From: an uncultured Pseudomonadota bacterium | Lineage (GTDB): Bacteria; Babelota; Babeliae; Babelales; JAUPTZ01 | Assembly: GCA_964429275.1 (NCBI GenBank) | Contig: CAYSBJ010000001.1 | Location: 1-64,000 of the forward strand | Direction of reading: 5' to 3' | DNA length: 64,000 bases | Part shown: positions 3,873-47,371 of the stretch, one piece after another | How the letters are laid out: each line of letters opens with the position of its first letter | How positions within the stretch are numbered: position 1 is the stretch's first letter | Translations under genes and position numbers: made by a program | Notes under the pieces: generated by a model | The model's input: only the letters and a program-made list of their open reading frames with translations | Told to the model about the DNA's origin: nothing | Database searches by the model: none

Positions 3873-3901
3873 TGCTCTCTCCTTTTCATAACACCAGCCT
3901 C

Positions 3902-9094: not shown

Positions 9095-9174
9095 ACCGAC
9101 CACCTTTTTTAAAATAAGAAGCAGCTAGCATGATAATCGAGACAAACGCAAGGGTGTCAATGAAACCGCAATTT

Positions 9175-12100
9175 TCATCGCTTACGAGAATGACCGGTTT
9201 TTTTGCGACGCCGCGAACCCCCTTTGACCTGAATAAGAGATGGCGACTGTACCAGATTACCTGTTGCGAAGTGAGACGTATTTTTTGGTAGCACAATATT
9301 ACCGGCATACGGTCCAGTTAGTTCAGCGGCAGAAGCAAAATTTGCCCCGTACCCCTGTATGCGCGCGTTGTTTGTCAAGATCAACTGGTCCGCGGGAACA
9401 TTTATTGATCCTGCGAGCGCACCATTTCCCAGTGCAAAAGCCACCGGCGTATCAAGAATCAGCCGTCGAGACGCATCAGCCATTAAGGTACCACCGAAGT
9501 CAACATAGACAACCCCTGATTGATCGGCGCCATTAACCGGCTGTGCTGGCGGTAAACCATTCGTTCCACGAGCGCTTACACACCAACTATCAGTAGCAAC
9601 TCGCAACGTACCGCCACCCGTTACCCCAGGATTAAACTTTCTACTCTCATCAAACGTCACTCCCGTTAACGGAATATTCCATGGAGAATACCCATCAGTA
9701 GACCCAAACGGTAATGGCCAACCAATATTTATTCGCGATTTATGCGCTAAATAGAGAACATGTGTTGCCTTATCTCGCGCTGAAACATCTTGCTCACGGA
9801 AATCGCTCAGCACCAACTCAATCGTCGACGGCATTAATGCCGTTGCTCCTGGCGTCAGTGCACTACGATACACATCAATAAAGGCATCGCGAAGCAAAGC
9901 CGACTGGGTACCGTTACTCATGCGATTTGCTGAAGAACCAAGCTGGAAGACCGCTCCTCGCCTATGCAACGCATCCAACGATCGACCTCGAGAATAGGCA
10001 AGCAATGAAGAACTATTATTGCCATTCGCGCTATCATTTTCACCACTATCTCCGTTGTTTTCATGAATACTCCATCGCACACCAGCACTTATCAGCGACT
10101 CTTGGCACGCAATAGTACTGTTGCACAACGAAATACTTGGTCCATATGACTCACCAAACAAAACTGCTCGCTCGCCACCAATAATAGTCGGCAATGCCGT
10201 CATCGTTACGCTTGGCGCTTGAACCACGCCAAGATTGCGAGAAACGTCACTGTGAATGTATGTCACGCGATCAAAATGTACAGGTGCATTAACCAAAATA
10301 GAAGATGCGTTATAGCGTCTATACGAAGCGCCAACGATGAGTGGTCGATTACCATACAGTGGATGTTCATACGCAGTAGGAAGATCATTTACAGCCCTAT
10401 TTTCTGCATCAGCAAGAAAAGTCTCTATCCCCGCAGCAATGCCCTGTAAAAATACCTGCTGTACGAGGGCTAATGGAGGGAAATTATGAGGCAAGATTCC
10501 ACGGTCTGTCACTTCGTACCACGCACCACTGGCAAAATCGTACCCCCAATCTTGGATACCGGTAGTCCACAATCCAGTTGCTGTATTATAAGACCAAGCA
10601 GTAGTTGTTGGGTTATATACCCAGGTATGGCCAGAACCGTGCTTATACCACTTGTTCGCACTATTCGCGGCACTGATCCAATAAGGCTCACTGCCATCGA
10701 AATAGTACCAACCATCAGCAAAGGTTCCCCCATCAGGCATCCAACGATTATGAGCAGAAGTATACTGCCAACGAGTATCACTAAAAGACCACGCCCATGC
10801 ACCAGTTGTGTTATTGTACGTTACTTGGTTCTTGCCAGAACTATCGTTCCAGTAATACGGCCAAGGATCCAATGGACTATAAGAAGCCGTCCCATTACCA
10901 AAAGTATCGACACCCTTCAGCACTTGTGTTGACGATGACCATGTTAAACTCGGCGAAGAAGAAAGCGCATGTGACACAATTAAAGCACGTCGTATTTGGT
11001 GAGCAATCATAAACTGTGGCACAAATCGTGGCGGTAAAACACCTTCTGGCAAACTCGACCACGAGTCACTTATAAGATCATATGACTCGCCTGAATAGGT
11101 ATCATTACTCGGATCATACGTAATAGTTACATCACCATTAGTCCACTGACGCATGCTATAAGAATACGTCCAGCTTTCTGTCTCATCCGCGTTGGTCCAG
11201 GTGATAGTTGCCGGATCGTACGTCCATTTTTCTGATTCATTCAGCAGGTTTTGCCAGATCTTAGTACTACTGTTGTAACTGTACGATATCGGATTAAATG
11301 GATTAAGTGAATGAGCCCAACTCCATGAACCATCTACTGCCGCAGTAAATGCAATTTTACCGTCAACCCATGATGGTTCAGCTGGTGGAACTAATGTTGC
11401 AATAGCAAGCCTATCGCCCAACGTATTATCATACACAATACGCATGCCTTCGCTCGTATTCGAGGCAAGCCACGTGCCATCATCTTGCCGCGCAAAGGTT
11501 AAGCCTGCAATAGACCCAAATGAAAGAAATCCTGACGCCAAAGCAGAATCAAAGCTTGTGCGAATTTTTGCTACCTGCCGAGCTACAGATGGTGGTTGGT
11601 AGCCAGAAAGCGCCGGTGGCGTACCCGCTACTAACACCCATGTTTGTGCATACTCATCAAAGCGCCAGACTGTTTTATAAGCATTACTTACCGCAACACT
11701 TCCCCATGTCAGCGTTAGCGGATCATACCGCCAACGAATTGCATTGGCAGGATCATACCAAACATTAATCGCTGGGTAATAAATCCAATGCGCACCGAGT
11801 ACTGCTGGGGTTGCAGGATTATATTTATACCAATTTTGCGTTGCAGTTCCGCCGTTGAGCAACTTCCATGAATCATACACCCCACTAACCATTGGGCCAG
11901 TTACTATGGAAGTACTTGGATTATAGGTCCACGTACGTGACGGTGAGCCCAGTGTGTGCGTCCATGTCCACGCGTTGGTGCTTGGTGTATACACCAAAGA
12001 AGCAGAAGAATCCCCGGCCACATAGGTCAACGTTGGTGTGCCTGCACTTGCAAAATTTGCCGTCACAGTACCGTCAGGTCCCGTTATGCCAAATAAATCG

Positions 12101-15100
12101 CCAGAAACAACCTCAAAGTCACGTTTTAATGCAATCGACGGAAGGAACGCAAAATTACTTGCTGTCACCCCAAGCGCATCCACCTGATTCATTACCAACC
12201 GGAGATACATTTGATGCACCAGTGCAACTGGTGGCCGCCCAGCATCACTAATACTACCTGTACCCGAAATTAACTTCCAAAACCTGCCCGCTACACAATA
12301 GCGCCACACGGTACCAGAATTAAATTCCTCCCATGTATCAGCAGTTGTACTATAATGCCATATATTTCCACTCGGACCATGCATCCACGTATCATCACTT
12401 GAATCATAGGTAAAAATTTGCGAATCATCTCCAACAAAGGTCCAGGTAGCCGCTACTGAATCGTATACCCAATCGGTATCGCTATCGCTCTTTTCTTCCC
12501 AAACTCCAGTGCCAAAATTATAGACTGCAGTATATGCGTTGTCAGTATCAACAAGATTTAGCCACTCCATTAAACCTGAATTTAGGTCAACCGTAAAGGC
12601 AACCTTGTTTTCTTCGCCAGTCCATTGAATCGTATTGGTTCTTGGTGCATACACAATCGACTGTATTGATGAGCCATTTGCGACTCTCCAAGAGCCATCG
12701 TCCTGTTGCGTAAACGGAGTAATCCACCCGTACGGCCCACTCGATTTCTCAAAGGCACCTGCTAACCGGAATGCATCAAACAATGTTCGTACAATCGCCT
12801 TTTGTATCACTACAAGCGGCGGAAATCCATCTGCTGGTGCGCCAGCGTAAGAAGTAATCTGTACCCAACCATCACCAAGTTGATAGTAATTATACTGCCA
12901 AACATTCGTACCATCATTATATGACCAGCGCCCGGTTGACGGACTATACGTCCACACATGTGAACTGGAGTTCTTTGTCCAACTTAAGGAATCACCTGCG
13001 CTATTATGCCAGGTCGAGCTGCCATCAGTCCAGCTACTCGTGGATGGGCTAAATGACCACGTAATACCTTTTTGACCATCAACCCACACAGAAGAATCTC
13101 CGTCATACGACCAGGTCTCTGGCCACAGTGGATCAACAGATCGCTGCCACGTAAAATTACCCGAAGCAACATCTACGGTGACCAGAATAGCACCTTCATT
13201 AAACGACCGTGGACCAACAAGACGGCCACTTATTTCTTGCGAACTCACCGTATACGTTGCTGTAAAATCAGCGGCTGTATTAGCAGCATGATAAACACCA
13301 GAAACTGGTTGGGTAACAACCCAGTTAGCAGTACCTGCTGATGCAAAAGCCCCATAGCCTAAGAATTTTTTGAGAATATAACGCGTATAGAGCTGCTGCA
13401 AAAGCGGCAATGGCGGCCTTGTTGACGGCAATATCGCGCCAAACGTAATTGGTTGCCATTGGTTATCAGTTGCCGCAAAATCATAAAACCAGTCAGCATT
13501 TCCTGTCTCGTCACGCCACAAACCGGTTTGCATATTCCAAGACCAGTGACCTGAACCACTTGACCAGACACCATTTGTTGAGTCATAACTCCACAATGCA
13601 CTACCACCTGTTATTTGCTGCCACGTTTGAGCATCAAGATTATACTCCCATAGCGTTCCATGAATTACATCAGTCCATCGACTCGTATCATTATTAAAAG
13701 TGTACGCATTTCCGTCACCCATAAAGCTATCCCACTCACAATGCCCCGTCGTCAGTTCGTAAGAAAATATTATGTCAGGAGAAGAGCCTATATGTGCAGC
13801 ATTATTTCGCCACTCAATAGTCGGTGCAGAAGAAGACGTTGATACAATAGCATAATCATTAAAGCGTCCGCCCCTCAATGTCCATGTGGAACCAGATACT
13901 GTTTTTGTACAAAGCGAACCTACCGCATTCCATATCGTATCCACTAACGCCTGTTGCACTACAACAAGTGGTGGCAAGCCACCAGCAGGAAGCCCATTGT
14001 AAGAAGTAATCTGCATCCAACCATCAGCAAGCATCTTATAAACCCAACGCCACGTAACTTCACCGTCATTATACGACCAATAGCCTGTTGTTGGGTCATA
14101 CGTCCACAGTGTACTGCTCCCATTATGAGACCACTGCAAGCCAGCAAGACTTGATTTCCATGAATCAGAATCACATGAGAAAGTTCCTGTAACTGGGTTA
14201 TAATCCCACTCTTCGCCTGTTTGATTATTGGTCCACACACGATCTACACCGTCATATTCCCACGTCTTCGTCCAGCGCGGATCAATCGAAGATTGCCAGC
14301 TAAAACTACCCGTATATGTATCATACGAGAGATCGATTGCACCGTTAGCAAGTGAGCTGTCTGAACGAGTACCTGTAACCACACCAGTCTGAGTATCATA
14401 CGTAGCAGTAAAATCACCTGCACCATTTGTTAGAGCATACGTAAGCGAAGATGGACCACTTACAATCCAATCACCACGACCACTTTCACCAAGTACTCCA
14501 TCCGCCCAGAACGCATTAAGCACTCGTGCCATATACACTTGCTGTATCAACGGTAACGGCGGCGTAAGTGATGGCAGAACAGCGCCATTGGTAAACGACT
14601 CCCAACCAGACCCTGCCGGAGAAAGATCGTAAATCCATCGCGCACTGTCAGCCACATTCATCCAAAGACCAGACGTTGCATTCCAAGCCCAATGAACGGT
14701 AGTCCCACCATTCACTCCGGTCCAATGATCGGCTGTCGAATCATACGTCCATACTTGCGAACCACCGGCAGTTTGCGTCCATCGCTTGAGCGCCACATCA
14801 TATGCCCATACATTACTTCCACCATCCGTCCATGTGCTACCACTAAATGTGTACGCAGGCGAACCACTACCGCTCAAATACCAGGAATTGCTCGCTGTCG
14901 TAAGGTTATAGGTAAATCTAACATCAGATGTGAGACCAGAGAAATTTTTGTTATTGTACCAGGCCAAACTGCCAGACGAATGGCCGCTCGCCAAAGTCAA
15001 TACAGCATAATCATTAAGATATCCTCCGTATGACCGCCATTCACTAGGGCCTGTCTGAACAACCGAAGGCAAAGCGCTTGCGGCACTAAAAAGTGTATCG

Positions 15101-30100: not shown

Positions 30101-33100
30101 AAAGAAACAGCAGGGATTGAGCTCAAAATTCTACCATTACTACGCCACGAAATAGCCGTCCGTGTTACATCGGTTGGAACAGTTAAGGTAGCGTGGTCGC
30201 TAAAATAACCCCCGTCCAGTGTCCATGTAGAACCACTTGTCGCCGTTACCAACGCAAGACCATTCAGCACTGTCCACAGGGAACTAGCAAAAGCATGCTG
30301 AACAACAACCAATGGCGGAAAGCCATGTGCTGGTTGCCCCGCAAAGGTTGAGGTCGCTTGCCACGTATCAGACAAAGCACAGTAACGCCACGTCCAAATA
30401 CCATGACCGCTATCGTATGACCAGCGACCAGTAGCAGGGTTGTATACCCACACAGCCGCATCGTTATTTTGAGACCAATGCAACCCTTCTGCAGTTGACT
30501 GCCACGTAGTCAGACCATCAGAGCTTGTCCACGTGTGACTATTTGCTGCGTAAAGCCATTGTTCACTCGTTTGACTGTTGGTCCACCTCGAAGAATTAGG
30601 GCTATATTGCCATAATTCTGACCAGCGAGGGTCGATTGTTCTTCTAAAGGCAAAAGCCCCTGTTTCAATATCATATGAGCTAAAAGAAACGGTGCCATTC
30701 ACATAACTGTAAGCACTCACCAAAGCACCAGTTGTCACCCCTGTACCAGCATTACATGAACCGGTAAAATCGCCGGTACTATTGCTTACCGGATACAGGC
30801 CGCTAGCAAGAGTCCCCACAATCCAATCTGTCTTGCCGCTCTCAACATACGCACCGCCAGACAAAATACCTTTCAATATGCGAGCACTATACATTTGCTG
30901 TATCAATGGCAATGGCGGTTTAACCGATGGTACTGCCGCACCAGCCAGGAGTGGTTGCCAAGCTCCTGAGGTTACCGTCAGATCATAAAGCCATTGCACA
31001 CCAGTAGATATATCAGTCCACAAGCCCTTTCTTGGGTCCCATAACCATCGATTACCACCATTTGAAACCCAATAACCGGTCGTAGTATTAAATGTCCATG
31101 TCGCAGTTGTACCAGTCTGCGCCCATTTTTTTTGCGTTGGGGTATAAGTCCAAGTACTGCTTGCACCAATATCAGTCCATAAACCAGTACTTTGTACATA
31201 GGTATACGCCAATGCCCCCGCGCTATACCAACTTGAATTGCCAGTGTTTACGATATACGTAAAATTAACTTCTGGCGTTACGCCTAAGTTATAGCCGTGG
31301 CTTCGCCACGCAATAGTACCAGTAGCACTCCCTGATGGCTGAGAAAAAGTGGCGTAATCATTGAAGTAACCACCAGCCAACCTCCACGCCGTAGGACCAG
31401 TTGATGTAACAACAAAAGCATTATCGATCGCACTCCACAATGAATCCAAGAACGCTCGTTGCACCACCATTAACGGCGGCAATCCTGTAGCCGGCATACC
31501 AGAATAAGAAGAAATTTGCTGCCAAGAATCAGCTAAAAAGCTGTACTGCCATACCCATGAGGAAGTTCCATCATTATACGCCCAATAACCCGTGCTTGGA
31601 TCATAACTCCAGGGCGTAGTACTCCCATTCTTTGACCACTGAAATGTCGTCGCGCTGCCCTGCCAAACCGTTGTTCCACCAACTAAAGCCCAGGCGCTCA
31701 TCGCTGGCTCATACTGCCATTGTTCATTCGTCTGCACATCAGTCCACAAGTGCGTACTACTATTGTATGACCAGCTGTTTGGCACTTGAGGATCGGTCGT
31801 ATTCATCCACGTATAGTTGCCCATCTGGCCAGTACTCGTAATTGCCATAAGCGAGAGAAGTTGAGCTTGCACCGTGCCGCTTTGCGGATTATACGTTGCC
31901 GTAATATCGTCAGCCGTATTCTTAAATGAAAGAAGACCGTTAGCAAAAACGGGGGAACTAAAAATCCAATTCGGTATCGCATTCGTATCAAAAGCGCCAC
32001 CAGCGACAAAGGCATTCAGAACTCGTGCTGCAAACTGTTGGTGCACCAACGGCAATGGCGGCACTACTGACGGCAATGTAGCGCCAAAAGTAACGGCCTT
32101 CCAAGGATTTGTGGTAGCGGTTAAGTCATACAACCATTCATTACCCGTTGAGACTTCTTTCCAAAGCGCTGTAGCTGGTTGCCACAACCAATCAGCAGAA
32201 CCAGAACCACCACTGTTATATACCCAATAACCGCTTGTTTTATTAAAACTCCATACCTGGCTCCCGCCACTCGTCTGTGTCCATACGTGTGTCGTCCTAT
32301 TATAAGTCCAGGTAGTTCCACGTACAATATCGGCCCAAACACCGTTGCTTGCTACGTATGTATACGCAACCGAGCCAGCAGTAGACCACGAAACGTTACC
32401 ACTAAGAAGCGGCGCAGAAAAACTAACTGCTGGTGTTGAACCCAAACTGCCACCATTATCTCGCCACGTTAAGGTAGTCGAGGCATTGTCAGAAGGAATG
32501 CTAAGACTTGCATAATCATTAAAGTAGCCACCAGTCACTTTCCAAGAAGTACCACTCACTTGCGTTACAACCGCCAACTCTCCTACCGCATTTTTAAGAG
32601 TATCAATCAATGCTTTTTGTATCACAACTAACGGCGGGAGACCACCAGAAGGCAAGCCAGGATGGCTACTTATCTGCGTCCAAGTGCCGGCTAATTCAAG
32701 GTATTGCCATACCCAGGCATGCACGCCGTCATCGTATGACCAACGACCAGTCGTCGGATCATAGGACCATACCGCGGCACCAGCATTTTGGGACCACCGC
32801 AGGCCCTGTAAACTTGACTGCCACGTCGTTAACCCGTCTGATGAGGTCCAGACACCAGACGCGGGAGTGTATCCCCACGTTGCACCTGTCTGCAAATCTG
32901 TCCAAGTACGAGTGCTAGAACTATATTGCCATCCCTTGGTAATTCGCGGATCAACAGTACAATTAAATACAAAATCGCCCTGCTCTATTTTGTATGAAAC
33001 AAGGGAGTAATCACCATGTATGAACGGATATGTACTTACCCTCGAACCAGAAATAACACCAGTTTCCGTATTATAAGTACCGGTGAAATCACCAGTGCTA

Positions 33101-35001
33101 TTGGTAATCGGATAACTACTTCCAGACGCAGACCCTACTGTCCAATCAGCCTTACCACTTCCCGCAAAAACACCTCCTGCGAGGAAAGCATTTAGAATGC
33201 GAGCACTATACATTTGTTGTACCAGTGGGAGCGGCGGCGTAGTAGCAGGAAGCGACGCTCCTGCTGAAAACGGAATCCACGGGCTACTTGTTAACGGTAG
33301 GTCGTACAACCATTGTGTCCCACTTGCCACATGTTTCCATAAACCAGTCTCTGCTTGCCATAACCATTTTACTTGGTCACTTGCACCAATATGAAAAACC
33401 CAGTACCCGGTCGCCGGATCAAATGTCCAGACCTGACTCCCCCCTGCCGTTTGTGTCCACACTTGCGTTGACGCATTGTACGTCCACGTATTTGTTCCAC
33501 CAACGTTAGTCCATGTACCGGAAGTAAAAGTATACGCCGGTGATCCACTACCAGATGCATACCAAGAGTTGTTACCGCTATTGAGAAGATAAGAAAAATG
33601 TACTGCCGGTGCCGCAGGAGCACTGCTACCATCACTGCGCCATGCAATAACAGTTGTCGTCGTATCCGTTGGAATAGTAAGCGTTGCGCTATCGTTAAAA
33701 AGCCCACCAGACAACGTCCACTGAGCAGCACCAGTTTTTTCTACCACACTTACTGAAGAAAGCTTATTCCACAAAGAATCAAGTATCGCTTTCTGAACTA
33801 CAAACAGAGGCGGCAAGCCAGCAGATGGCTGCCCACTATAGTTGGATATTTGCTGCCAGGATCCCGCAAACATAAGATAGCGCCACACCCAGGCACGATG
33901 CCCGTCATTACAAGACCAGTACCCAGTAGACGGTGTATAAGTCCAAACTGCAGCACCAGAATTTTGAGACCACGTAAGCGCAGTTACATTCGACTGCCAT
34001 GTCGTAAGCGTATCGCTACTCGTCCAGGTGTTTGCATGAAGATCGTACGACCACTGCTCACCAGTTTGCGCATCAATCCAAAAGCCAGTAGTACTGTCAT
34101 ATGCCCAGCTCTCTGACCACTGTGGATTAATCGAACGTGTCCAACTAAAATCACCGGATTGGATGTTATATGAGGCAAGATCTGCAGCACTGTTTGCCAC
34201 CGAATAGTAACTGTTAATAGTCCCCTGGACCACACCAGATACCGTGCTGTACGTTACCGCAAAATCATTAGTACTATTAAGTAGGCTATACAGACCTGCA
34301 GTCTGAGACTGAATTATCCAATCAGTTTTGCCACTTTCAACCAGAGCACCAAGCCCCAGCACAGCATTTAACGTTGACTGCGCATACATTTGCTGCAGAA
34401 TAGGCACTGCTGGTTTAACTGCAATGGTAACAGAACTTGGGTTATAAATAGCCGTCCACGTTTCAGTCGTAAAGTCATATGACCAAGTCGTCGACGATGG
34501 GATGTGCGTCCATTGAAAAGTAACTGGATTCCACTGCCACGCAGGATTACCAGTAATTCCTAGCGTACATACCCAGCAGCCAGTGCTACCGTTATATACC
34601 CATTTTTCTGGAGCTCCTACAGTCACCTGCCAAGTCTTGGTGCTCGGTGTATATACCCACGTACGACCACTCGTCTGATTCCACGTTTGTGTGCTGCCAG
34701 TAAACGAATACGTTCTACCAGTAGTAGTATTTCGCCATGCAATATCACCCGTTATAAGATTCCAGTTCGCGACAAAGATAGAGCTGGCTTGCGGCACCGT
34801 CGAATTGTCTCGCCATGACAAGGAAGCCGATGAACTGGTTGCGCTCAAAATAACCGAATCATTATACGGCCCACCAATAGCGCCCCACTCTACTATTTGC
34901 GAACCATTTGCGACTGTCCGTGATAATGTGTAAGGGGCAGCACTACACCCAACACTTACAAAGACGAGAACTAAACCTACCAGGCACTGCCGTATATTCA
35001 T
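9175..35001 (-). CDS. Giant exported Trp-rich tandem-repeat protein (8608 aa), putative surface filament/adhesin
   Basis: Uninterrupted 25.8-kb ORF with GGAG 7 nt before the ATG and an ATGA overlap with the upstream gene. N-terminal signal (possible lipobox VSVG-C19), 19 ~390-aa repeats, and a C-terminal B module shared with the 1171- and 1730-aa proteins. Confidence 0.9.
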   Translation of the reverse strand: MNIRQCLVGLVLVFVSVGCSAAPYTLSRTVANGSQIVEWGAIGGPYNDSVILSATSSSASLSWRDNSTVPQASSIFVANWNLITGDIAWRNTTTGRTYSFTGSTQTWNQTSGRTWVYTPSTKTWQVTVGAPEKWVYNGSTGCWVCTLGITGNPAWQWNPVTFQWTHIPSSTTWSYDFTTETWTAIYNPSSVTIAVKPAVPILQQMYAQSTLNAVLGLGALVESGKTDWIIQSQTAGLYSLLNSTNDFAVTYSTVSGVVQGTINSYYSVANSAADLASYNIQSGDFSWTRSINPQWSESWAYDSTTGFWIDAQTGEQWSYDLHANTWTSSDTLTTWQSNVTALTWSQNSGAAVWTYTPSTGYWSCNDGHRAWVWRYLMFAGSWQQISNYSGQPSAGLPPLFVVQKAILDSLWNKLSSVSVVEKTGAAQWTLSGGLFNDSATLTIPTDTTTTVIAWRSDGSSAPAAPAVHFSYLLNSGNNSWYASGSGSPAYTFTSGTWTNVGGTNTWTYNASTQVWTQTAGGSQVWTFDPATGYWVFHIGASDQVKWLWQAETGLWKHVASGTQWLYDLPLTSSPWIPFSAGASLPATTPPLPLVQQMYSARILNAFLAGGVFAGSGKADWTVGSASGSSYPITNSTGDFTGTYNTETGVISGSRVSTYPFIHGDYSLVSYKIEQGDFVFNCTVDPRITKGWQYSSSTRTWTDLQTGATWGYTPASGVWTSSDGLTTWQSSLQGLRWSQNAGAAVWSYDPTTGRWSYDDGVHAWVWQYLELAGTWTQISSHPGLPSGGLPPLVVIQKALIDTLKNAVGELAVVTQVSGTSWKVTGGYFNDYASLSIPSDNASTTLTWRDNGGSLGSTPAVSFSAPLLSGNVSWSTAGSVAYTYVASNGVWADIVRGTTWTYNRTTHVWTQTSGGSQVWSFNKTSGYWVYNSGGSGSADWLWQPATALWKEVSTGNEWLYDLTATTNPWKAVTFGATLPSVVPPLPLVHQQFAARVLNAFVAGGAFDTNAIPNWIFSSPVFANGLLSFKNTADDITATYNPQSGTVQAQLLSLMAITSTGQMGNYTWMNTTDPQVPNSWSYNSSTHLWTDVQTNEQWQYEPAMSAWALVGGTTVWQGSATTFQWSKNGSTTPWSYDPSTGYWAYNDGTSSWVWQYSFLADSWQQISSYSGMPATGLPPLMVVQRAFLDSLWSAIDNAFVVTSTGPTAWRLAGGYFNDYATFSQPSGSATGTIAWRSHGYNLGVTPEVNFTYIVNTGNSSWYSAGALAYTYVQSTGLWTDIGASSTWTYTPTQKKWAQTGTTATWTFNTTTGYWVSNGGNRWLWDPRKGLWTDISTGVQWLYDLTVTSGAWQPLLAGAAVPSVKPPLPLIQQMYSARILKGILSGGAYVESGKTDWIVGTLASGLYPVSNSTGDFTGSCNAGTGVTTGALVSAYSYVNGTVSFSSYDIETGAFAFRRTIDPRWSELWQYSPNSSRWTNSQTSEQWLYAANSHTWTSSDGLTTWQSTAEGLHWSQNNDAAVWVYNPATGRWSYDSGHGIWTWRYCALSDTWQATSTFAGQPAHGFPPLVVVQHAFASSLWTVLNGLALVTATSGSTWTLDGGYFSDHATLTVPTDVTRTAISWRSNGRILSSIPAVSFNYLLNTTDINWYSNGNASPSATYNGAVDSQSFGQWSDAAGANTWTYNDLERVWTQTSGGSQVWSFDDTTGYWVYDFDGTSPIQWLWDAEAATWTVVSDGSEWVYDFTNPSSPWVCLSASATLPAVTPPLPLTQLMYSSRVLNKFLAAGVFAESEHADWSVGAPVAGVYPVTNGTADFNLSYTTLDGVVTGGLVSTTYPFVDGAFSLVEYDIEHGDFTFVLSIDPRLPRTWQFASGPATWSDLQTGEQWTYDADLNIWVGPDGVTTWQSSLQGLQWSQNAGAAVWTYTPSNGHWSYNDGSRSWVWRFLALSSSWEQISSHAGLPAHGLPPLMVVHKALVDSLWCQLATTTTAQQLSSGNWTVTGGYFNDYASLIVPSDSQLATLTWRDRGNDLTSTPAISFSGTLRTGDISWYTVLSSDPSYRYVASTGLWTDVFSGVSWTYDDSAQTWTPAIGVAWTFDTATGHWVYDFEGDNAVSWSWDTATGLWEEVETGKHWLYDLTRYADSWTAVEAGASLPVITPPLPLVQQCYYTRVLKSFVTAGAFNTIGVSNWVFRSPSPASGVFSLQNRANDTVVTYTPTTTILTAQLLSFMNVTSTTQTGSFTWTLAVDPETPKSWSYSNSTHTWTDAQTSEAWVYTPSTKMWTLSGGSTTWQQNPTTNRWSRNGSAQVWMYAPTTNEWSYNDGTRLWVWQYDFLAESWRQISTNSGSPAGGVPPLMVVQRAYLDSLWNTVGGLCTTSKTSATKWTMTGGYFNDYATFTMPAVGGTASIAWRNKGNDLTKTPDINFSYVINTGDSIWYTLASRNPAYTYTANTGTWKNAAGTSVWTYNPSLKRWSLAGSTQTWTYTPSTGYWTSNDGVRWLWNQDTGLWQDITGNHQWIYDLTAASNPWVSLTAGVTVPAVTPPLPLIQQMYSARVLHAFLSGGVFAESGKADWVLGTVSGGAYPLANSTNDFSATYALTSGNIAGQRVSSYSFINGAYFLPLYDIEHGDFVFRRSIDLRWTESWQYSSTTGLWTSSQSNESWSYSKSTRTWTRVGGSTTWQSSLQGLQWSQNDGDALWTYAPSTGYWSYDSGHGIWQWQYLAFADTWKQISAFAGQPANGFPPLVVVQKAFLDSLWAALDETFVVAQTSDTVWKLTGGYYNDLATLTVPVDASTASLTWRDNGSHLSTTPAVRFVYTFLNGNDNWYTAAHNSTPAYTYVNSTGNWTDVVGGDTWTYAPLTQQWTHTHTDSHTWRYDAASGHWISDTSVHWLWHPTTAVWEHSASGALWVYDFTATSSPWHAVTFGAELPAMTPPLPLLQQMYRLRLINSFIAANVLDGRGSSDWALSSSVTSGTTFALHNGSDDFTATYNSGTGIINGQLWSALTITNDTGTGDFTWQLTLDPQATKQYSFDSNTERWTDAQTNQQWSYAPSTKAWTLVGGSTTWVSDVTGLIWSKNSGAAVWTYTPSSSQWSHNDGTHAWVWSFNLLTNTWEQVTSFAGAPASGMPPYVVIQKAYLNSLLNVFAHEAMVEQVSDYEWSLRGGYFNDSATLTVAMDDPSLATIEWRTDGNDAALVPALNYTYDVATGDNTWYRNGSSTAAYTYDAESGLWTDVAHSTLWEYDSLGLTWTPTAGEVWTFDATTGYWIYDLGGMDEVQWLWDAAHVCWVHIADSKRWTYDLTASSNPWQALSSGATLPSITPPLPLVQQMYSSFILNAFLKIGVFAESGKTNWTVGAVHSGAYPVANSTNDFIAAYTPSTGDVTGNRVSGSSFLNGAYSLTSYSVETGDFTFTCMVDPRFPQVWQYNSGPAMWADLQTTEAWSYDPATATWTDEGESVTWQSSLQGLQWSQNNGDAVWTYDPTTGRWSCNDGVHSWVYRYLLLANAWQQITAFSGAPAHGLPPLVVVQKAFVDTLWNALQAKNIVTQNSSSVWTLAGGAFNDHATFTIPSDTILTTIAWRNNGATLSDTPAVSFSYKVKTADSSWYIDGDSSPAYTYTASTHSWANDDDTDVWTYDIPSLTWTQTAGGSQEWSYNYVTGYWEEAAGKEWLWNAATGMWTDVASGKQWFYNLTASTDPWRAVSYGATLPLVTPPLPLIQQLYEQRVLSKFYSYGMFAESGKADWITPSPVVAATTIAVENSVNDFVASCNTTNGNIVGSLSSSDLFLDQAVSMTANTLSGSFSWTRSVNPLLPEMWSYNSTSHVWTDRQTNEQWTYAPSTLTWTNEDTWTSIPATMAWSQNAGVAIWTYNPWAGQWSYHDGTHAWVWSYSFVSDQWTQVSSNTGTPTHGLPPLVVVQKAVVDSLVNIFTDAPVMKQLTSSSWLAQGGYFNNYALLTLPSDGSLSTITWQTDGDNFVSTPAQRYSQGLSSGDIDWYTAAQNLTPAYTFVRSSGAWTDVVGSAAWTYNATAHTWTQTSGGSATWSYNSEDDYWTSAAGVHWRWQPTTGTWLNVADAKVWLYDFTVTSSQWKALSSSAILPGTTPPLPLVQQLYAKKVFNEFLNNGMLNAVGAADWIFNSPVVSTETFVVNNGNNDSTATYNPATGNITAQVFSVLSLTGNASTGAFTMKLAFDSQPISTWIYDISTHRWTNTQTSEYWTYSASTLTWTSSDSATTWTSNPITMNWTKNTDAAVWTFDPSTGQWSYNDGTRAWVWVYSFLTGTWRQISNYTGTPTQGLPPLVAVQKAFFDSLLNVFSNTSYITNPTAHGWVAHGGYFNDYAALTLPVDRRNASLTWRSNGNDLSSIASSSFSYTLRSGDTAWYTATSGLPAQTFNGATGLWTDYVGNATWTYNAAMQTWTQNSGGSEAWHFDTVTGYWTSSEDDQWLWDPAKGTWHDVARVADWLYDFTRLSSPWESLTVGASLPARRPPLALTQQLYRTRILNQFMALNLFDDCAVSDWIFNVPVVAATSLTVANSLGDFTATYTPDDNLITGNLLSFISISNNTETGAFTWKNTVNPQAYLSWAYDSSTHTWTNAQTAEAWVYSPVTNVWTLSGGSTTWQSDVDGFAWSKNAGAYIWTYDPLTGYWSHDDGTNTWQWLYEHMRNAWTQITTYTGTPAGGLPPLMVVQRALLNSLWSCVNDRCIVTQSSPTEWVAKGGYFNDRAVLTVPSGPTSPSIAWRDKGYNLSVAPNINFNYTLNTGNSAWYLAGSGSSAYTFTGSSNVWSNAAGTNVWVYSPTAKTWTQTVGGTTVWTFNSTTGHWVSGSQRWLWISDVSLWQDVASGNQWLYDFSAATNSWEALTDSAVLPVLTPPLPLVQQMFMMSVVNEFLSAGAFPSSGLADWAFTSPMLDDGVLTVTNSAGDFTASYTNETDVITAHSVSPYPFVNNALTITYHRSSGVFTWRQTVDARWPETWVYNSATRRWTNGQTGEYWIFDAVTNSWTSASDVVWTSNPVIRQWSNGSSSWYYAPDTGYWLYDDGVNVWQWQYSFLSGTWTQITSFEGGFSQVRPPLVVVQKAFLDSLCDAFNNVLSVSSVSSTECIGSGGYYNNYATLTIPDNKALSTIEWRNRGDDLDVDPDIAFTYHMGTGNMAWTLGASASSSYSFTESSGVWLDEITSDTWVYNPTAQSWTHSADSKTWTYDATNDYWTYESGGGDQVQWQWQKDRSLWVEVATGNQWLYDFGNLLSPWESLTSGEDVPTIVPALPLVQQLYSKHIVRQFLVAGAFDCTGKSDWILGEPPVTDHVFSLRNSVRDFTATYNMQTGLVSGAFQSPYSFVNGSVTVGSSSTTNDFVWQRSIDGETVAQWSYDGVWTDEQNGDQWAYDSNTRVWSNFYDSVTWSGDTAGLVWSRSSGDVSWTYDPATGYWAYQDADSAWLWHYHFFAGTWFPVTTADAIPVGGFPPLALVQKTMIDILQNTAIKKENRIVPGDADDEFVIRGGYFNDYALLTMPTDLSTATIAWRNKGNNLVADPDVNFTYALNTGNASWYDSSSGSPVYTFDNSTGEWVDVAGGTTWAYDATAQTWTQTSGGSQVWIFNPVTGYWTFDDGINGVVDWEWQPTRNLWQHVELHQEWLYDFTNPITPWRALFSGGTTPAIAPPLPLTQQLYAAGVYNAFLRWGAFDSLGKTDWILNAPVLSSGVISAHNSANDFTATYNPTTGVIQAELLFSTHIIYNTSNGAFTWNFAGYPEWPIQSSYDATSHIYTDGLLGNEWSYNPTTMVWTVVGGSETWQSDLLGYRWVKNGGEEVWIYDPTASSWSYNDGTRSWVWQYGPVSNTWNQISAYSIADFLTGFPPRVVLHKVILNSLYNAFTGDSVAVTETDSTHWVLRGGYFNDYATLAVASPSSNTAIAWRNKGYNLALTPDVSFTYTLASGNSSWYLGGSGSAAYTYVGSSGLWTDVPHSVTWTYDSSARTWTPTTGSVWTFDTATGYWTYDLGGSPVQWQWNASTGIWKHIASGGQWIYDFASSGGAWEPLTNGASIPSHAPPLPLVQQLYSARILNEFLTAGVFAQSELANWTVTGPVDGIYTITNGAGDFQAHYDTTMLTIAGMVSGASVSSYGFLSGKYGFTAYNIETGEFTFQRSVDTRFPEEWQYSAGAWTDLQTGAVWTYNATTQRWTAPDSTTWTVGVGGVQWLKNGGTVIWIYHPDTGHWTHNDGTHTWEWEYLWFAGAWKQITTFAGTPAAGLPPLVAVQQALLKSLLNVIGNLSDVSATSGTVWTLTGGYFNDNATLTVSGGGSVGTVAWRDNGGSLGSSPAINYSHTIGTGNNSWYLAGSGTPAYTYTGNTHTWTNADNTQTWVYDVALRKWTQTVGGSQVWTFNGSTGAWMPTSGSGWVWQPASGLWLSLADGVQRLYNFNASSPWQGWESATAPVSPTPPLPLIQQMFTAQILSKMLAFGMFREESTADWVFQAPIASSGLAQAGNKEGDFTVTYDISTGDIVGRNVHPDAFINNTVTLTANTNTRNFTWRSAVDSRWPLSWSYDNSTTTWTDSQTQETWLYDVERNIWTSGSDSSVYWSYDANTGDWYKGADVNPWLYDASSGHWTYYGSDHESVWQYSMINNAWNQISSYPSPSTGLPPLAVVHKTMADTLFSAASALPSVVQTGPSEWRSYGGYLNDYAVLTLASGHSSGSLAWYNNKNFSGLTSDVRFTYNLTTASNSWYLSGSGSPAYTFSGSTWTDGGSNVWAYDVALKRWTQTAGGSQVWTYDSTADHWTGVNGGTTVHWAWNATSGLWMNVADSARWIYDLSPAGSGWESFTNGAVLPSLTPPLPLIQQVYMARVLNAFWADGVLGESGRGDWIVSGPSSLTYALTNGAGDFTATYDTQTGVVTGTRSDSSLANGAIDLSYDTYTGSFSWQSSIDPRWTKTWEYDGVDRVWTNNQTGEEWDYNPVTGTFSCDSDSWKSSLAGLQWSHNGSSTLWTYDPTTGYWSYNDGEVTWRWVYKMLADGWMQITSYNGLPAGGLPPLVVVQQALVDTIWNAVGSLCTKTVSGSTWTLRGGRFNDYAIVSTSSSAPTIEWRNNAAHIGSSPDIIFSYELTTGHCEWDSFMGDGNAYTFNNDTSRWTDVIHGTLWEYNLDAQTWQQITGGSALWSYDSTNGVWSSGSGHWSWNMQTGLWRDETGNADWFYDFAATDNQWQPITFGAILPSTRPPLPLLQQLYTRYILKKFLGYGAFASAGTANWVVTQPVSGVYHAANTAADFTATYTVSSQEISGRLVGPRSFNEGAILVTVDVASGNFTWQRSVDPLWPETWSYDGDSSVWVDGQKGITWSFSPSTSSWTDGSSTWHNSAGDSLSWTKNSSSHVWTYSPSTGRWSYNDGTNVWQYNYYQLGDGWVQITSYAGAPADGFPPLVVIQKAIVRTLFDAFRLAGAFEKSSGPYGWITPFTQQDDGSWRVANGSSIQSIVYAPRTNTIQWTGEENKVAFTVDLNSGLMEWLNLVDTDNAYTAVYNFGTGVWEEKSDSDTDWVYDSVAATWTFVGDDSQIFTYDSSDDTWMHGPSGNIWHYSTTADTWEEFNSGTVWRYCVAGRFWKLISGTGSISDAGRPPVALVHQMYLRLVMNQVDALGVTASNFAFLPSIALKRDFEVVSGDLFGITGPDGTVTANFASAGTPTLTYVAGDSSASLVYTPSTNAWTWTHTLGSPSRTWTYNPSTSIVTGPMVSGVYDSWKLLNGGTATQNWYKYNPATPAVLGAHWIYYPAINVWYDPANAIRWRYDPLTLTWGSVAVSNAYKTVWRFDEYAQTWVLVAGTPPALSGYQPPSVARQVAKIRTSFDSALASGFLSFGSIAGLTFARQDDGTWLASNTSEGMRIVYDNTLGDRLAIATLVPPAEPSWVDGKIAFTAAVDGSWSWAHSLNPFNPISYSYNSSTKIWQNLLNESEKWTYDPATITWTNADETESWTYSYSMRQWTNGDVTITYDPSNDTYSGESYDLISDSWSSLPEGVLPPRFVPQFMIAHQIRRALIVSHALSSSPSLTWSSSTQVLKGVDTFGNGTASYSPLDPWPYYWNDSSGKNQVTYNNTTGAWAWSFSDTRWQYTSAHNRWMPDGGTFADGWYYFDGSEPYWISAANSANKWYKHGSGHTWVYNPTTTAWSYNTATGLWTTGIQDWGYDFASGAWYEVTDRGILPHNFPPLALVQQVFLQGIAAGIETFLADAENRAVNDLPTAYEHPLYGNRPLIVGASYRRYNASSILVNAPVHFDRVTYIHSDVSRNLGVVQAPSVTMTALPTIIGGERAVLFGESYGPSISLCNSTIACQESLISAGVRWSIHENNGDSGENDSANGNNSSSLLAYSRGRSLDALHRRGAVFQLGSSANRMSNGTQSALLRDAFIDVYRSALTPGATALMPSTIELVLSDFREQDVSARDKATHVLYLAHKSRINIGWPLPFGSTDGYSPWNIPLTGVTFDESRKFNPGVTGGGTLRVATDSWCVSARGTNGLPPAQPVNGADQSGVVYVDFGGTLMADASRRLILDTPVAFALGNGALAGSINVPADQLILTNNARIQGYGANFASAAELTGPYAGNIVLPKNTSHFATGNLVQSPSLIQVKGGSRRRKKTGHSRKR
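10430..34880 (-). repeat. Protein-level tandem repeat array: 19 units of ~384-400 aa plus 4 degenerate half-units
   Basis: A GG(Y)FND-type marker recurs near 34875, 33708, 32532, 31374, 30213, 29013, 27855, 26688, 25533, 24354, 23190, 22035, 20883, 19722, 18543, 17373, 16197, 15027 and 13872 (spacing 1152-1200 nt). Each unit also has one PPLPL(I/V)QQ-type and one PPL(V)VVQ(K/R)A-type motif. Confidence 0.9.
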
Positions 35002-37658
35002 GAGAGGACTCCATCAATTTCACGTCCCGTGTGGTCAATTTGAATAGAAGGAATGGTTACGTAGCCATTCGGAGGAAAACCAAACTGACTCAACACTGAA
35101 ACAAAACTCAGCTCACCTTCAATATCCAGTGCATGCTCACCATCTAAACAGCGTGCATCAGATCCTTCATTTAAAATCGGATTTCCATACCGATCAATTA
35201 CAATTGATTCTGTCGCTGAGAGCACTCCATTGCTATCAAGCACTGGACAAAAAGTACCATCGTATACTCCAACACCAATCGTAACATCAAGCGTTTCTGC
35301 ACCAGTGTCAGAATCGGTAGCAACTTCATTTACTATAGTTCCAGAATCAGAGGCAGCGCCACAGCGGAAAAAACAGCCTGCAGTACCTTCTAATACTATT
35401 GTGGCAAAACTCGTACCGGCATAAGACATGTCATATGATACGTTAGCTGAAGCACCATATGTGCCCAGTTCATCAATAATGAACGCCGAAGGATTGTGCA
35501 ATTTTACCGTAGAAGTAGTCCCCGCGCTTCCACCAAGCTGCAAAGGATCCACCGCCTGATTGGTTGTACCAGCAACGTAATCCAAAAAAAGATTATGCCG
35601 TATACGCAACTGCCCATTATCACCCAAAATAAAACCTGGTTGATACCCTTTAATTTTTTGTGAAGCCGCCCAATCGCTTGTTTCAAGAGAAGGTGCATGC
35701 GATAAATTTGAAGCTAAATATGGATACGTAGTATTGTTGTTAACAACTACAAGCCCACGCCGCATACTTGCATCACGATCAAGCCACGCGGGCAGATCTG
35801 CTTCTACATCCTCAACTAAAGTGCTATAGGCAAGATCATCGACGATACTAACTAGTGCAAGCATACCTGCTCGCTTATTAGGGAAGACATTTTCACGCAA
35901 GTCAGTTGCAATTACTGCACCACTTTCGCCAGTGCCAACTACCAACGATCCCCAAATATTAATTCCTGCATCAGAGCCAAGGCCAGAAATAATCCCTGGT
36001 GCAAGGTCAAGAATAGTTCGACCGGTTCCTTCATGGCACACATCGAATGCTAGAGAGCCATACCCAGGCGTATCAGCATCAGTCCCCGTTTCATTGTAAG
36101 AAACAAAACGCAGACATGACGATGGGCCAAAGAGTATCCAGGTAGTTTTGTTCGTCTCCGTGTTTACCGAAGAGGAATCGTCTGAAGCTTCTTGAGCGTA
36201 ACTCCATGGTTCAAAAACTACTTGCTGGACTCCAGAAGCAATATCATCCGCGGTTAAGTCCATTAATACTTGCACTGTAACACCAATAGATGCAGAATCT
36301 GGAGCAGCTGGCCCAAATGAAAGCGTCTTTCCTGACGGCAACCGAAAAACAGTAGAACCCTTCCCCCGGAAAGTCACGACAAGCGGTATCGTCGCGTTTG
36401 CTTGAAAGTAAACATTGTTCAAAACCCTTATCTCAAGCGTATTCCCCTCCGCCACATTAAAAATCAACTGCGCACATGTTGCCGAATCGGCTGGCTGAAT
36501 AACAACATCAGCATCGGGCAGACCGGTACCAAGAGTCAATACCGCATCGTTTGTTACTGACAATTCAATATCACCACTCAGCGCTACGGTATCCACAAAG
36601 GTCATAGTAGTAACTAAATCAAACGTAAAAGTGCCACCGCGGAAAAGACTGCTCGTTGTTGGGTCAATCAAGCCAACGTCGGAACCATCGCTACTACCAA
36701 ATTGAACACCACTTGCAAGTAATGTTGCATAAGCATCTTCAATGACTGCCTTATAATGAGCAAATGGTGTTGGCGGCAATAATGGCATTGCCTCCACAGG
36801 AGAAACCGTACCATCAGTTGTATCATGCCATAAAAAGTCATTAGTATGGTAACTCCACGTATGCAATGCACCAGTACCCGGTGGCGAAATTTTTACTGCT
36901 TGCGATGTCAGACCACCAGTAGCCAATGCAAGCTTCCACACAACATAATCCCATCCATCCGGAGGCGTGCTTCCAACAATATCCCACTGGATCTCAGTAT
37001 TTGTCATTGCTTTGAATCGCCACCACTTACTCGTCTCCTGCAAGAGCCACTGCCCATGCGTAAGATCAGAGCGGTACGTCAACGAAGAGCCAGAATCAGG
37101 GCTGATTTGAGACCATGTTTGCGCCGCTGAATCAAAGGCCCATTCACCACTTACGGGAACTGTTGGCGTGCCCGAAACAGTACGCACATAATTCCAAACC
37201 CGATCCTCCGGGACATACTGCCAATAGACTGAACTCACCGCTAAAAAGCTGTACAAGGACCCACTCAAAGAAGTACGCGTTACAGGAGACCATTTTTTAG
37301 TCGTTGCATTGTAATGCCATACTTGATGTGCATACGTAGTTGACGTTGTAAGATCATAGATTCCATCCGCAGTATTAACCCAGACACCATGACTATTGTC
37401 ATAACGCCACTGTTCTCCCGTTTGCATATTCTGAAAAACACTGCTCGCAGCCTGAAAAGTCCATTGGTTTGATGTGGCTATGTCGGTCCAAATCCAATCC
37501 CCAGTAAGTACTGCATACTCCCAATGGCTTGTCGCATCAGACCAAGAAATAACATTACCCCCTGGCTCTACCACCAGACCAGTGGCCACGCTGTATGCAA
37601 GCGAAGTTACACACAAAAAAATCATTAATAAAGAACGTATCTTCATGTTGAACCTCAT
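34998..37658 (-). CDS. Exported protein (886 aa): one Trp-rich repeat followed by module A only
   Basis: ATGA overlaps with both neighbours; an alternative start is ATG 37646. Signal peptide, then a W-x-(Y/F) ladder ending in LPPTPFAHYKA, then module A (FRGKGSTVFRLPSG, PGYGSLAFD, GTGRTIL, PGFILGDNG, VKLHNPSAF), ending at DHTGREIDG. Confidence 0.85.
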   Translation of the reverse strand: MRFNMKIRSLLMIFLCVTSLAYSVATGLVVEPGGNVISWSDATSHWEYAVLTGDWIWTDIATSNQWTFQAASSVFQNMQTGEQWRYDNSHGVWVNTADGIYDLTTSTTYAHQVWHYNATTKKWSPVTRTSLSGSLYSFLAVSSVYWQYVPEDRVWNYVRTVSGTPTVPVSGEWAFDSAAQTWSQISPDSGSSLTYRSDLTHGQWLLQETSKWWRFKAMTNTEIQWDIVGSTPPDGWDYVVWKLALATGGLTSQAVKISPPGTGALHTWSYHTNDFLWHDTTDGTVSPVEAMPLLPPTPFAHYKAVIEDAYATLLASGVQFGSSDGSDVGLIDPTTSSLFRGGTFTFDLVTTMTFVDTVALSGDIELSVTNDAVLTLGTGLPDADVVIQPADSATCAQLIFNVAEGNTLEIRVLNNVYFQANATIPLVVTFRGKGSTVFRLPSGKTLSFGPAAPDSASIGVTVQVLMDLTADDIASGVQQVVFEPWSYAQEASDDSSSVNTETNKTTWILFGPSSCLRFVSYNETGTDADTPGYGSLAFDVCHEGTGRTILDLAPGIISGLGSDAGINIWGSLVVGTGESGAVIATDLRENVFPNKRAGMLALVSIVDDLAYSTLVEDVEADLPAWLDRDASMRRGLVVVNNNTTYPYLASNLSHAPSLETSDWAASQKIKGYQPGFILGDNGQLRIRHNLFLDYVAGTTNQAVDPLQLGGSAGTTSTVKLHNPSAFIIDELGTYGASANVSYDMSYAGTSFATIVLEGTAGCFFRCGAASDSGTIVNEVATDSDTGAETLDVTIGVGVYDGTFCPVLDSNGVLSATESIVIDRYGNPILNEGSDARCLDGEHALDIEGELSFVSVLSQFGFPPNGYVTIPSIQIDHTGREIDGVLS

Positions 37659-40600: not shown

Positions 40601-41170
40601 AGAAGAGTTTGTTGGATCATGCGAAGAAAGAGCATCAGCACTTTCAAAATTAAGATCAGCGTACAAATTGACGACAATTACTTTACCTTCAGCAGGATTA
40701 AAAATTAACTGGGATGCACCGCTGCTCATAGTTGTTGTAGAATCAGTGTATGCAGAAATAGTAACCGGCAAGTTAGAGGCTGGTGTTGCAGGCGAGCCGA
40801 TGTTAATCGTAAAAACTTCCGGTTCAATTTGCGGATTACCGTTTGAATCTAACGTCGGATCAGAGCCGATAAAGCGAATTTCTACATCACCTTGGATGGA
40901 AACGTTATCGACAATCGTTAATACATCACTGCCAGTAACTTCAAAAATTCCCGCTTGCGTAATTGGCGAAACTGGCGTGCCATCAGGCAGATTCGGCATA
41001 GCAATGCTCTCTTCTACGAACTCAGTATTAAGGTCTGAGATAAAGCCGCCGCCAACGCCGCCAGTCCACGCACCACTACCATCAATGCTTCCCCATTGAT
41101 AATTCGTTGCGTGCACAATGACGCTGCTACAAATAAAAAGAGATAGTATATAAATAGAATGTTTGCGCAT
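37655..41170 (-). CDS. Exported beta-rich protein (1171 aa), intact module A+B; first gene of the operon
   Basis: ATG with GGAG 7 nt upstream. Signal peptide ...VIVHA-T. Motifs FRGRGSTVFRLPSG, PGYGSISFDPSNRGTGRMIL, PGFVLGVNG, VKKHNPAAF, IHSDVTR, VVGGEL, IQLGS, LGWP. Confidence 0.85.
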   Translation of the reverse strand: MRKHSIYILSLFICSSVIVHATNYQWGSIDGSGAWTGGVGGGFISDLNTEFVEESIAMPNLPDGTPVSPITQAGIFEVTGSDVLTIVDNVSIQGDVEIRFIGSDPTLDSNGNPQIEPEVFTINIGSPATPASNLPVTISAYTDSTTTMSSGASQLIFNPAEGKVIVVNLYADLNFESADALSSHDPTNSSSGGASIPLYVTFRGRGSTVFRLPSGRRLRFGPPSPGHTAFSTTDENGSPIVIPADAPLSTQGVHVQVYMEQGYIDVYGNSSVAPQQQLCFEKWSYDVDTTVTPAMNTNLSLDTWITWGQLSSFAFISDNYAGVGETWNDNIVVNGKEDVAEQLLQPGYGSISFDPSNRGTGRMILQLCAGQDPNGNDFTDAGFNIYGALLVPTVASTTRAPAIVLNSNFRTGVYFNQRAGVKALMRIVDNVSFAERVEFSTGDLSSNPAGWLTRPVSDRRGLVIINHNNSIPHFTNNYEGALRIDDSLWAQWNDYEPGFVLGVNGQIEVYSHNFIDYIANNFNQSISTAHANLSVYTSNLVKKHNPAAFYAQAIPSFPRRSTRQTDQWGIPISDLQYIANSHPTVILQGDAGFFVRATAANDTDAFVKKLFLQPFTNELYYLDQAVVNDTVQAITVALGIGNYDGTYIPITDTYGENIMQTAELDGSHALDVEGTLSIVSHVGQRGEPVAGFFTVPPVEIDYAGRELGYTNFEEWAAWASWLANAGGQTQTVFLPISGRAVTFDSTTNITLTQAPVNAASALTRPLPVQSGSSSTAAYYAIYDRSTIFLNANLIFDSINWIHSDVTRKLDTPAVLPQPFIKALPHVVGGELASLQDALYPPLLKLYSTTVNCHESLVVTGAAITVQEYALGSSVTDPTLANNTSHIVCYDRGRDYDKNGYGRVIQLGSQANVAADEVTTSLMYTSGYLDVYRSAPTASLVAGNIPPASPTTIRLSIDSASDFGVADDTEHGLHLLYLANGSQVHLGWPTLEGDSGYLPSAMDNVVLSQLQALDPANSKGFRFNPYDTGVGNLQFNGSSFCIAAGDDIDALPPERPISGADVDGVVYADCGGMLSLTPKTRLFIDTVVGRRKAQLPAATGMIVAPSDQLYFLPNGTVQDYDVDFTSDEDPSTEPSGSKRPLYPNYIVVGEVDSSHVFNVPELYETTDIESVK

Positions 41171-43098: not shown

Positions 43099-43109
43099 AA
43101 CCTATTCTA

Positions 43110-47365: not shown

Positions 47366-47371
47366 TCCTTT

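Follow-up and report, generated by a model that had tools for sequence, protein, structure and literature searches.

In a 64,000-nucleotide stretch of Dependentiae DNA (positions 1 to 64,000 of contig CAYSBJ010000001.1, assembly GCA_964429275.1; hereafter the window), two adjacent genes encode the two halves of a protein that is a single chain in its neighbouring paralogs. The proteins in question are built of two consecutive modules, termed here A and B. Two genes, encoding proteins of 1171 and 1733 amino acids (aa), are intact A+B paralogs; the other two, encoding an 886-aa protein and a giant of 8608 aa, carry A and B, respectively. All genes bearing A or B lie on the minus strand. The gene fission is real and conserved, it affects an undescribed family with a predicted beta-helix fold, and a giant fibre is placed at its seam; the assembly of the two halves in trans is a well-supported prediction of structural modelling.

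The original prediction described the 886-aa protein as the A half only, stopping six residues after a GRE motif, and the giant as the B half only, starting at an RPL motif, and it pointed to a variable spacer between these motifs in the intact paralogs. All three statements were borne out by alignment of both chains with the 1171- and 1733-aa proteins, in which the coverage is complementary and non-overlapping. In BLASTP searches the 1171-aa protein gave a single alignment with the 886-aa protein (query 68-707, subject 336-881, E 4e-86), which ends at GRE(L/I), and the C-terminus of the latter reads GREIDGVLS, i.e. six residues past GRE. With the C-terminal 799 aa of the giant, the same query aligned from RPL onwards (query 764-1125, subject 410-748, E 6e-50). 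This B match covers the last ~390 aa of the 8608-aa chain, where no A match was obtained; its RPL is residue 8219 (window ~10347). The 1171- and 1733-aa proteins align with each other collinearly across A and B (E 1e-87). From GRE to RPL, the spacer measures 15 aa in the 1733-aa and 57 aa in the 1171-aa paralog, and it ranges from ~13 to ~90 aa over 18 aligned family members. The complementarity of the 886-aa protein and the giant is thus far beyond chance.

The A/B family is undescribed and restricted to Dependentiae-like genomes. Five queries gave no Pfam family at E <= 1, and profile searches of the PDB sequences found no relative (best E 0.28 for A1 and 0.063 for A5); a profile of the 18 members recovered 266 representatives at E <= 1e-3 among 1.84 billion proteins. 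The family is also absent among the matches listed in a search of the literature on Dependentiae adhesin, beta-helix, autotransporter and surface proteins, where Dependentiae are mentioned solely in PMC10066038 (on Omnitrophota).

The whole chain of the 1171-aa protein was modelled with AlphaFold2 (AF2) as a mostly beta structure, with a predicted local distance difference test score (pLDDT) of 74.6 and a predicted template modelling score (pTM) of 0.82. Foldseek matches to this model were weak (best E 1e-2) and mostly to right-handed beta-helices. With VIA-align all 50 entries listed were right-handed beta-helix proteins (Z 7.3-11.5, 248-416 residues aligned), and alignments extended across both halves, e.g. 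7akv_G over model residues 21-1068, 3sze over 30-1086 and 7eea_A over 22-1082. Moreover, distant family members show one unbroken profile match across the cut (e.g. profile 637-918). As the whole-chain model, the cross-half alignments and the unbroken profile matches agree, A and B are best described as two parts of one solenoid, which the models depict as a continuous right-handed parallel beta-helix of the pectate-lyase-like fold. On the same profile, proteins with A only stop at 681-683, and those in which B follows W-rich repeats (W-B proteins, see below) start at 687-705. The cut accordingly falls, in the model, within a variable inter-rung loop of the helix.

Sequence comparisons strongly support the view that the 886-aa and giant genes are the products of an ancient fission of a third A+B paralog. 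Among 164 database proteins, 71 were of the fused A-B architecture, 10 were W-B, four W-A and two fused W-A-B; the remainder comprised two A-only proteins ending right after A, 73 partial or distant sequences and two proteins of other classes. Domain trees for A and B were computed with IQ-TREE, and also in FastTree versions. In these trees a W-lineage clade, apart from the 1171 and 1733 clades, takes in the A half of the 886-aa protein as well as the B half of the giant; it comprises 9 rows in the A tree (Shimodaira-Hasegawa-like approximate likelihood ratio test, SH-aLRT, 90) and 12-13 rows in the B tree (SH-aLRT 92/83). Beside split forms, this clade holds the fused W-A-B proteins P0039 and P0041, whose region ahead of A is homologous to the N-terminal part (residues 30-393) of the 886-aa protein (E 7e-29 and 2e-21).

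A metagenome contig, L022, carries a fused 2240-aa W-A-B gene (2711-9433), followed by a 1733-type gene (1624 aa, 43% identity over 1666 aligned positions) and an ortholog of the 590-aa gene that follows the 1733-aa gene in the window (609 aa, 43% identity). The fused gene occupies the position of the split pair in the window, and no 1171-type gene precedes it. The claim that a third paralog was split at the GRE/RPL spacer is therefore well supported both by the shared clade and by a fused ortholog at the matching locus.

Split orthologs were found as well. In all three genus genomes with an assembled junction (G000, G003 and G001) the pair is split with a 4-bp overlap, and the four-gene order and the ...TC ATG A... 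junction of the window recur in G003, where an 886-aa protein is paired with a frame of 6301 aa, and in G001, where the lengths are 612 and 1597 aa; the frames are intact. In G002 the B end alone is present, on a 2.7-kb contig, and in G004, which is 66% complete, neither half was found. Outside the genus, these queries detected no W-lineage gene in the remaining 256 genomes of the order, and the query used did not reveal the source genome of the fused W-A-B form among the order's 261 genomes. W-A and W-B proteins of other lineages are located on equal-sized contigs, e.g. P0050 and P0054 (43687 bp). Between species, identity amounts to 62-73% for split A, 47-65% for split B and 58-74% for the 1171 paralog.

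The original prediction further proposed that the two chains may re-associate in trans. Complex prediction was carried out with residues 340-886 of the 886-aa protein (8-row alignment) and residues 8179-8579 of the giant (11-row alignment). The interaction prediction score from aligned errors (ipSAE) was 0.81 (0.81, 0.80 and 0.83 in the individual runs), and the best of three controls reached 0.00; the runs had at least 34% of contacts in common, with a partner pLDDT of at least 67. Solved complexes attain the mark of 0.81 in 116 of 157 cases and mismatched pairs in 2 of 215, counts that hold only roughly here because custom alignments were used. The score is not a recall of a solved complex, since the family has no solved relative by sequence. 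Confident contacts link residues 842-855 and 863-869 of the 886-aa protein with residues 8232-8252 of the giant, in a parallel register (846:428, 848:430, 850:432 and 852:434 in the input numbering). According to this prediction, A places its last rung in parallel onto the first rungs of B, the arrangement of a continuous helix. The proposal of re-association has thus gained a specific predicted interface, while the association itself keeps the standing of a prediction. Circumstances in its favour are the apparent translational coupling of the two genes, the conservation of A and B between species, and the lack in A-only chains of the C-terminal VK element described below.

The rest of the giant is a repeat array. 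A hidden Markov model (HMM) built from one W unit identified 43 domains between residues 27 and 8181, of which 39 are full length (domain E 1e-34 to 1e-68) and the last four degenerate. The array consists of ~42 tandem half-units of ~195 aa and its period is a ~390-aa di-unit of two half-units, identity between half-units being 21% one step apart and 41% two steps apart. As the half-units share 58% identity at most, the array must be old, and it is too diverged for an assembly artefact. In the AF2 model of one di-unit (18 rows, pLDDT 83.7, pTM 0.80) each half-unit forms a helix followed by ~15 short strands. No Pfam match to the W units was found, YD-repeat included, and structure searches with the di-unit revealed only a generic likeness to extended antiparallel sheets. 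Foldseek gave E 6e-5 against teneurin and Rhs, but with template modelling (TM) scores of 0.12-0.18, and TM stayed below 0.2 against teneurin, Rhs and OspA alike; the best VIA-wide match was the free-standing beta-sheet of the CPAP G-box (4bxp; Z 8.4 over 76 residues). Two partial W units are also present in the 886-aa protein (residues 39-240), ahead of A. The N-terminal part of the 886-aa protein is not particularly similar to the N-terminus of the giant itself.

The length of the array differs among congeners, from 7 half-units (in the 1597-aa protein) through ~30 (6301 aa) to ~42 (8608 aa), and in the short-array species the A-only protein (612 aa) is devoid of a W region. Elsewhere in the genome, the W-unit HMM matched only a ~1790-aa frame at C1:116492-121867 (+), weakly (E 2e-9, four domains); this frame may encode a distant relative of the W repeat.

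One element of the original prediction was not supported in the form given. The array was supposed to lie at the A/B junction as an insertion tolerated by the spacer. However, in the fused ortholog A and B are separated by a spacer of ~25 aa (GREILAQGDVHGQQDGRHPLYG), without the array there; the giant possesses its own signal peptide; and W units stand before A in the 886-aa protein. The 57-aa spacer insert of the 1171 type, considered as a possible relic of a W unit, proved to be unrelated to it (hhalign probability 0.1%). The giant and the 886-aa protein each have a signal peptide of their own, as judged by eye, and all ten full-length W-B proteins open with Met and a signal-peptide-like N-terminus (P0078 and the window giant entered the comparison as fragments without the N-terminus). 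The W-B proteins also share a lead-in to B, PPLPLVQQ..F...FF.QPLYAGAR...HPLYG.RPL. The second chain has gained a new export signal together with the array, and no simple read-through insertion in one chain took place. The signal peptide and array of the giant may stem, for example, from tandem duplication and reciprocal loss or from a partial 5' duplication that entered the loop.

The idea that the fused ortholog bears an equal W array before A was examined and rejected, the W-like sequence in P0039 being confined to residues 18-115 and 1004-1190. Ahead of their W-like units, the unsplit W-A-B orthologs carry long N-terminal regions that differ from one another: ~900 aa of unassigned type in P0039, and ~400 aa, helical-looking by eye, in P0174.

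At the C-terminus of W-B proteins, a conserved ..(L/V)x(V/I)K motif and, after it, a strongly basic tail (e.g. SRRRKKTGHSRKR) are present, an arrangement also observed in P0007, P0070, P0071, P0078, P0079, P0082, P0083 and P0092. The VK motif also stands at the end of the 1171-aa chain (..ESVK) and before the 700-aa extension of the 1733-aa protein (FEPVKG); for this extension the ESM Atlas yielded nothing (score at most 0.83). A-only chains are devoid of the C-terminal element, which is kept by every other family type and could serve the whole family as an anchoring or processing signal.

Based on these observations, we consider it reasonably probable that one secreted beta-helix gene underwent fission and that its two products assemble in trans after separate export. 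The 1171, 886 and giant genes would be co-transcribed, with the translation of the latter two coupled via the ATGA overlap, and both chains, each with its own Sec-type signal peptide, would be exported separately. Once outside the cytoplasm, A would dock with its last rung (HALDIEGELSFVSV) on the first rungs of B (SILVNAPVHF...) and complete the helix. The ~8,200-residue W fibre, as the N-terminal part of the B chain, would then emerge from the helix seam, and the short W region of the 886-aa chain would be situated at the other end of the helix. The assembly would probably work together with the two intact paralogs and with the conserved, barrel-like 590-aa protein. From fold and genomic context we infer export, surface location and an adhesive role, and the complex most likely represents a surface fibre or adhesin of a host-dependent Dependentiae bacterium.

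The 590-aa protein is a candidate outer-membrane barrel, as suggested by a weak ESM Atlas lead to PF13557 (21% of one cluster, score 0.95); in Pfam it had no match at E <= 0.1 beyond a chance-level one to PGPGW. Adjacency of the 1733- and 590-type genes was seen at five loci, namely in the window and in G002, G003, G004 and L022. A further 590-type paralog, 32-35% identical, is present in every genus genome.

A more far-reaching hypothesis, to which we give somewhat less than an even chance, sees in the locus a naturally split beta-solenoid, assembled rung on rung, that serves as the branch point of a fibre and as the core of an undescribed Dependentiae apparatus for attachment to protists. 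This apparatus would comprise three beta-helix paralogs and a dedicated barrel, with a fibre varying from 7 to 42 half-units between species. Dependentiae have obligate protist partners and genomes of ~1 Mb, and their attachment to and entry into the host are essentially unexplained. As the locus takes up 3.1% of the genome and is without an annotated relative, it offers itself as a prime candidate for the surface machinery of these bacteria. If the hypothesis is true, a conserved split inside a beta-helix would be a natural case of trans-complementation of a solenoid fold after export, as well as a natural design for a very long fibre on a rigid head. The A:B pair offers a testable hypothesis with defined fragments and contact strands.

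Several points weigh against fission followed by trans assembly. The signal peptides of both chains were recognized by inspection by eye. In the trees, the placement of the split forms P0027 and P0122 is unstable, and the approximately unbiased (AU) test with all eight A-only rows as one clade gave p = 0.042, which speaks against a single clean event. The predictor may have re-created the single-chain fold inferred from fused relatives, and halves of split genes tend to pass a complex-prediction test; the calibration of the score is, as stated, a rough one. The surface or adhesin role, in turn, is drawn from fold and context. Finally, split B evolves faster than the B of the fused paralog (47% versus 60% identity between G000 and G001), which would also fit relaxed or changed constraint.

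The last point would also fit a reading in which, after the fission, the two halves led independent lives as half-helices that are stable alone and form no stable complex. The 886-aa protein would then be a free secreted or surface beta-helix, and B the C-terminal anchoring or export end of the fibre. Beta-helices can be truncated between rungs without unfolding, each of the two chains has its own signal peptide and its own W region, and in all family types B with its ..VK/basic tail forms the conserved C-terminus, all of which agrees with such a scenario. We nevertheless regard it as rather unlikely, though deserving serious attention, as the predicted interface is specific (0.81 versus 0.00 in the controls) and falls on the most conserved rungs of the family. 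Furthermore, the strict adjacency and ATGA coupling are present in all three assembled junctions, and among the genomes searched that have an assembled locus none has one half alone.

The 4-bp overlap, with the downstream frame open from it, could also allow a frameshift at ATGA producing a single A-array-B polypeptide of ~9,490 aa. There is, however, no slippery heptamer, and the three species differ in the sequence preceding the stop. The Met and signal peptide that open the full-length W-B proteins point to a start of their own for these chains, and a Shine-Dalgarno-like GGAG or AAGGTG is found before the ATG (in the window, GGAG lies 9-12 nucleotides upstream). It is therefore highly improbable that the two frames are read as one. 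That the stop after GRE is a recent mutation or a misassembly, to which giant repeat genes are prone and which the metagenome-type assembly in 8 contigs might invite, is effectively refuted by the identical junction in three species at 47-73% protein identity, by two contigs bridging it (X2 from an independent run, with 0 differences, and X7 from a ~93%-identical relative, with 107 substitutions and 0 gaps), by repeat units too dissimilar (<=58% identity) to collapse in assembly, and by frames open over 886 and 8608 codons.

Fission with predicted assembly in trans remains the reading that we prefer; the features of the locus are collected in Table 1. The first 41 kb of the window contain six large genes, all on the minus strand and arranged head to tail. 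The genome assembly (1.208 Mb, 8 contigs) is 98% complete; a genome-wide search found A- or B-bearing genes in these four cases only, which together amount to 37.3 kb. The giant alone makes up 2.1% of the genome and is by far its largest gene. The 1733-aa gene begins with GTG (1730 aa when counted from the first ATG).

Table 1. Coordinates of the A/B genes, their domains and the genes downstream of them in the window
Feature	Position	Strand	Description
1171-aa gene	37655-41170	-	intact A+B paralog; signal peptide, A 140-707, 57-aa spacer, B 764-1124
886-aa W-A gene	34998-37658	-	signal peptide, two partial W units (aa 39-240), linker, A (aa 391-881)
A half of beta-helix (predicted) in 886-aa protein	35016..36488	-	aa 391-881; domA HMM positions 8-555 of 555
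Last rung of A, codons for 886-aa residues 842-855 (HALDIEGELSFVSV)	35094..35135	-	predicted contact surface with B
ATGA overlap: TGA stop of 886-aa gene / ATG start of giant	34998..35001	-	
8608-aa giant W-B gene	9175-35001	-	own signal peptide, ~42 W half-units, B half, basic tail
W-rich repeat array, giant aa 27-8181	10459..34923	-	~24.5 kb
B half of beta-helix (predicted) in giant	9334..10347	-	aa 8219-8556; RPL first
First rungs of B, codons for giant residues 8232-8252 (ASSILVNAPVHFDRVTYIHSD)	10246..10308	-	predicted contact surface with A
C-terminal tail of giant	9178..9333	-	..IQVKG motif, then strongly basic end (SRRRKKTGHSRKR)
1733-aa gene	3902-9103	-	intact A+B paralog; ~700-aa C-terminal extension
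590-aa gene	2100-3872	-	directly downstream of 1733-type gene; candidate outer-membrane barrel; ends ...CRVTF
653-aa gene, open-ended	3-1961	-	

The 1171- and 886-aa genes likewise overlap by 4 bp (37655-37658), so that three consecutive genes appear to be translationally coupled. Beyond them, at 41274-60056, lie ~10 orphan genes, whose products are rich in coiled coils and have a signal peptide or a transmembrane segment; Pfam searches of these at E <= 0.1 returned chance-level matches only. Pfam analysis of 12 neighbour genes likewise gave nothing usable, and scans for promoters and terminators showed no excess over the shuffled expectation. A search for RNA runs covering the junction listed none.

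Among known systems, the passengers of type Va autotransporters and of polymorphic membrane proteins (Pmp), such as EspP (3sze), Vag8 (7akv), Ag43 and Fap2, resemble the A/B proteins in having a long right-handed parallel beta-helix and a Sec signal (VIA Z of such passengers against the 1171 model 9.1-11.3). They, too, form multi-paralog surface families in host-associated bacteria, and a barrel-like gene is a neighbour of the A/B genes. However, type Va autotransporters have a C-terminal 12-strand barrel within the chain, which the 1171-aa protein and the giant lack and for which they have no room, because the chains end ~45-50 aa after B. The A/B family also has one member split into two genes. 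Chlamydial Pmp proteins are characterized by GGA(I/L/V) and FxxN motifs and a barrel, and the motif series of the A/B family (RGxGxxxFRLP ... DQ) is different. The A/B proteins matched none of the Pfam families of autotransporters, Pmp or two-partner secretion (TPS, type Vb); in particular, Pfam detected no TPS domain on them and no Omp85/POTRA on the 590-aa neighbour.

Giant adhesins (SiiE, Embp and the 7651-aa adhesin of Mobiluncus) share with the 8608-aa protein a single chain of more than 7,000 aa with dozens of tandem beta-rich units, encoded by what is by far the largest gene of the genome. The W unit differs in not being Ig-like, as it is a ~195-aa combination of a helix and a W-rich hairpin meander without a Pfam family. 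No type I secretion system or sortase signal was seen in the giant.

A further parallel is provided by heteromers that arose by gene fission, which show the same complementary coverage, a fused ortholog at the matching locus, adjacent coupled genes and predicted reuse of the interface. What sets the present case apart is that the split lies inside the repeat solenoid of an exported protein, therefore A/B assembly would have to follow export, and that the downstream half acquired a signal peptide and an array that brings up to 8,200 aa.

In Helicobacter pylori VacA, the p33 and p55 parts of a beta-helix protein are held together non-covalently. In the work of Torres et al. from 2004/2005, separately made p33 and p55 reportedly interacted and restored activity. 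The p55 part is mainly a right-handed beta-helix, according to PMC2836311. VacA has no sequence similarity to the A/B proteins, and it is made from a single gene and then nicked by a protease, whereas here the cut is genetic, is conserved among species and is accompanied by an export signal on each half. By analogy, the A/B pair may function most like VacA p33/p55 and like gene-fission heteromers in general.

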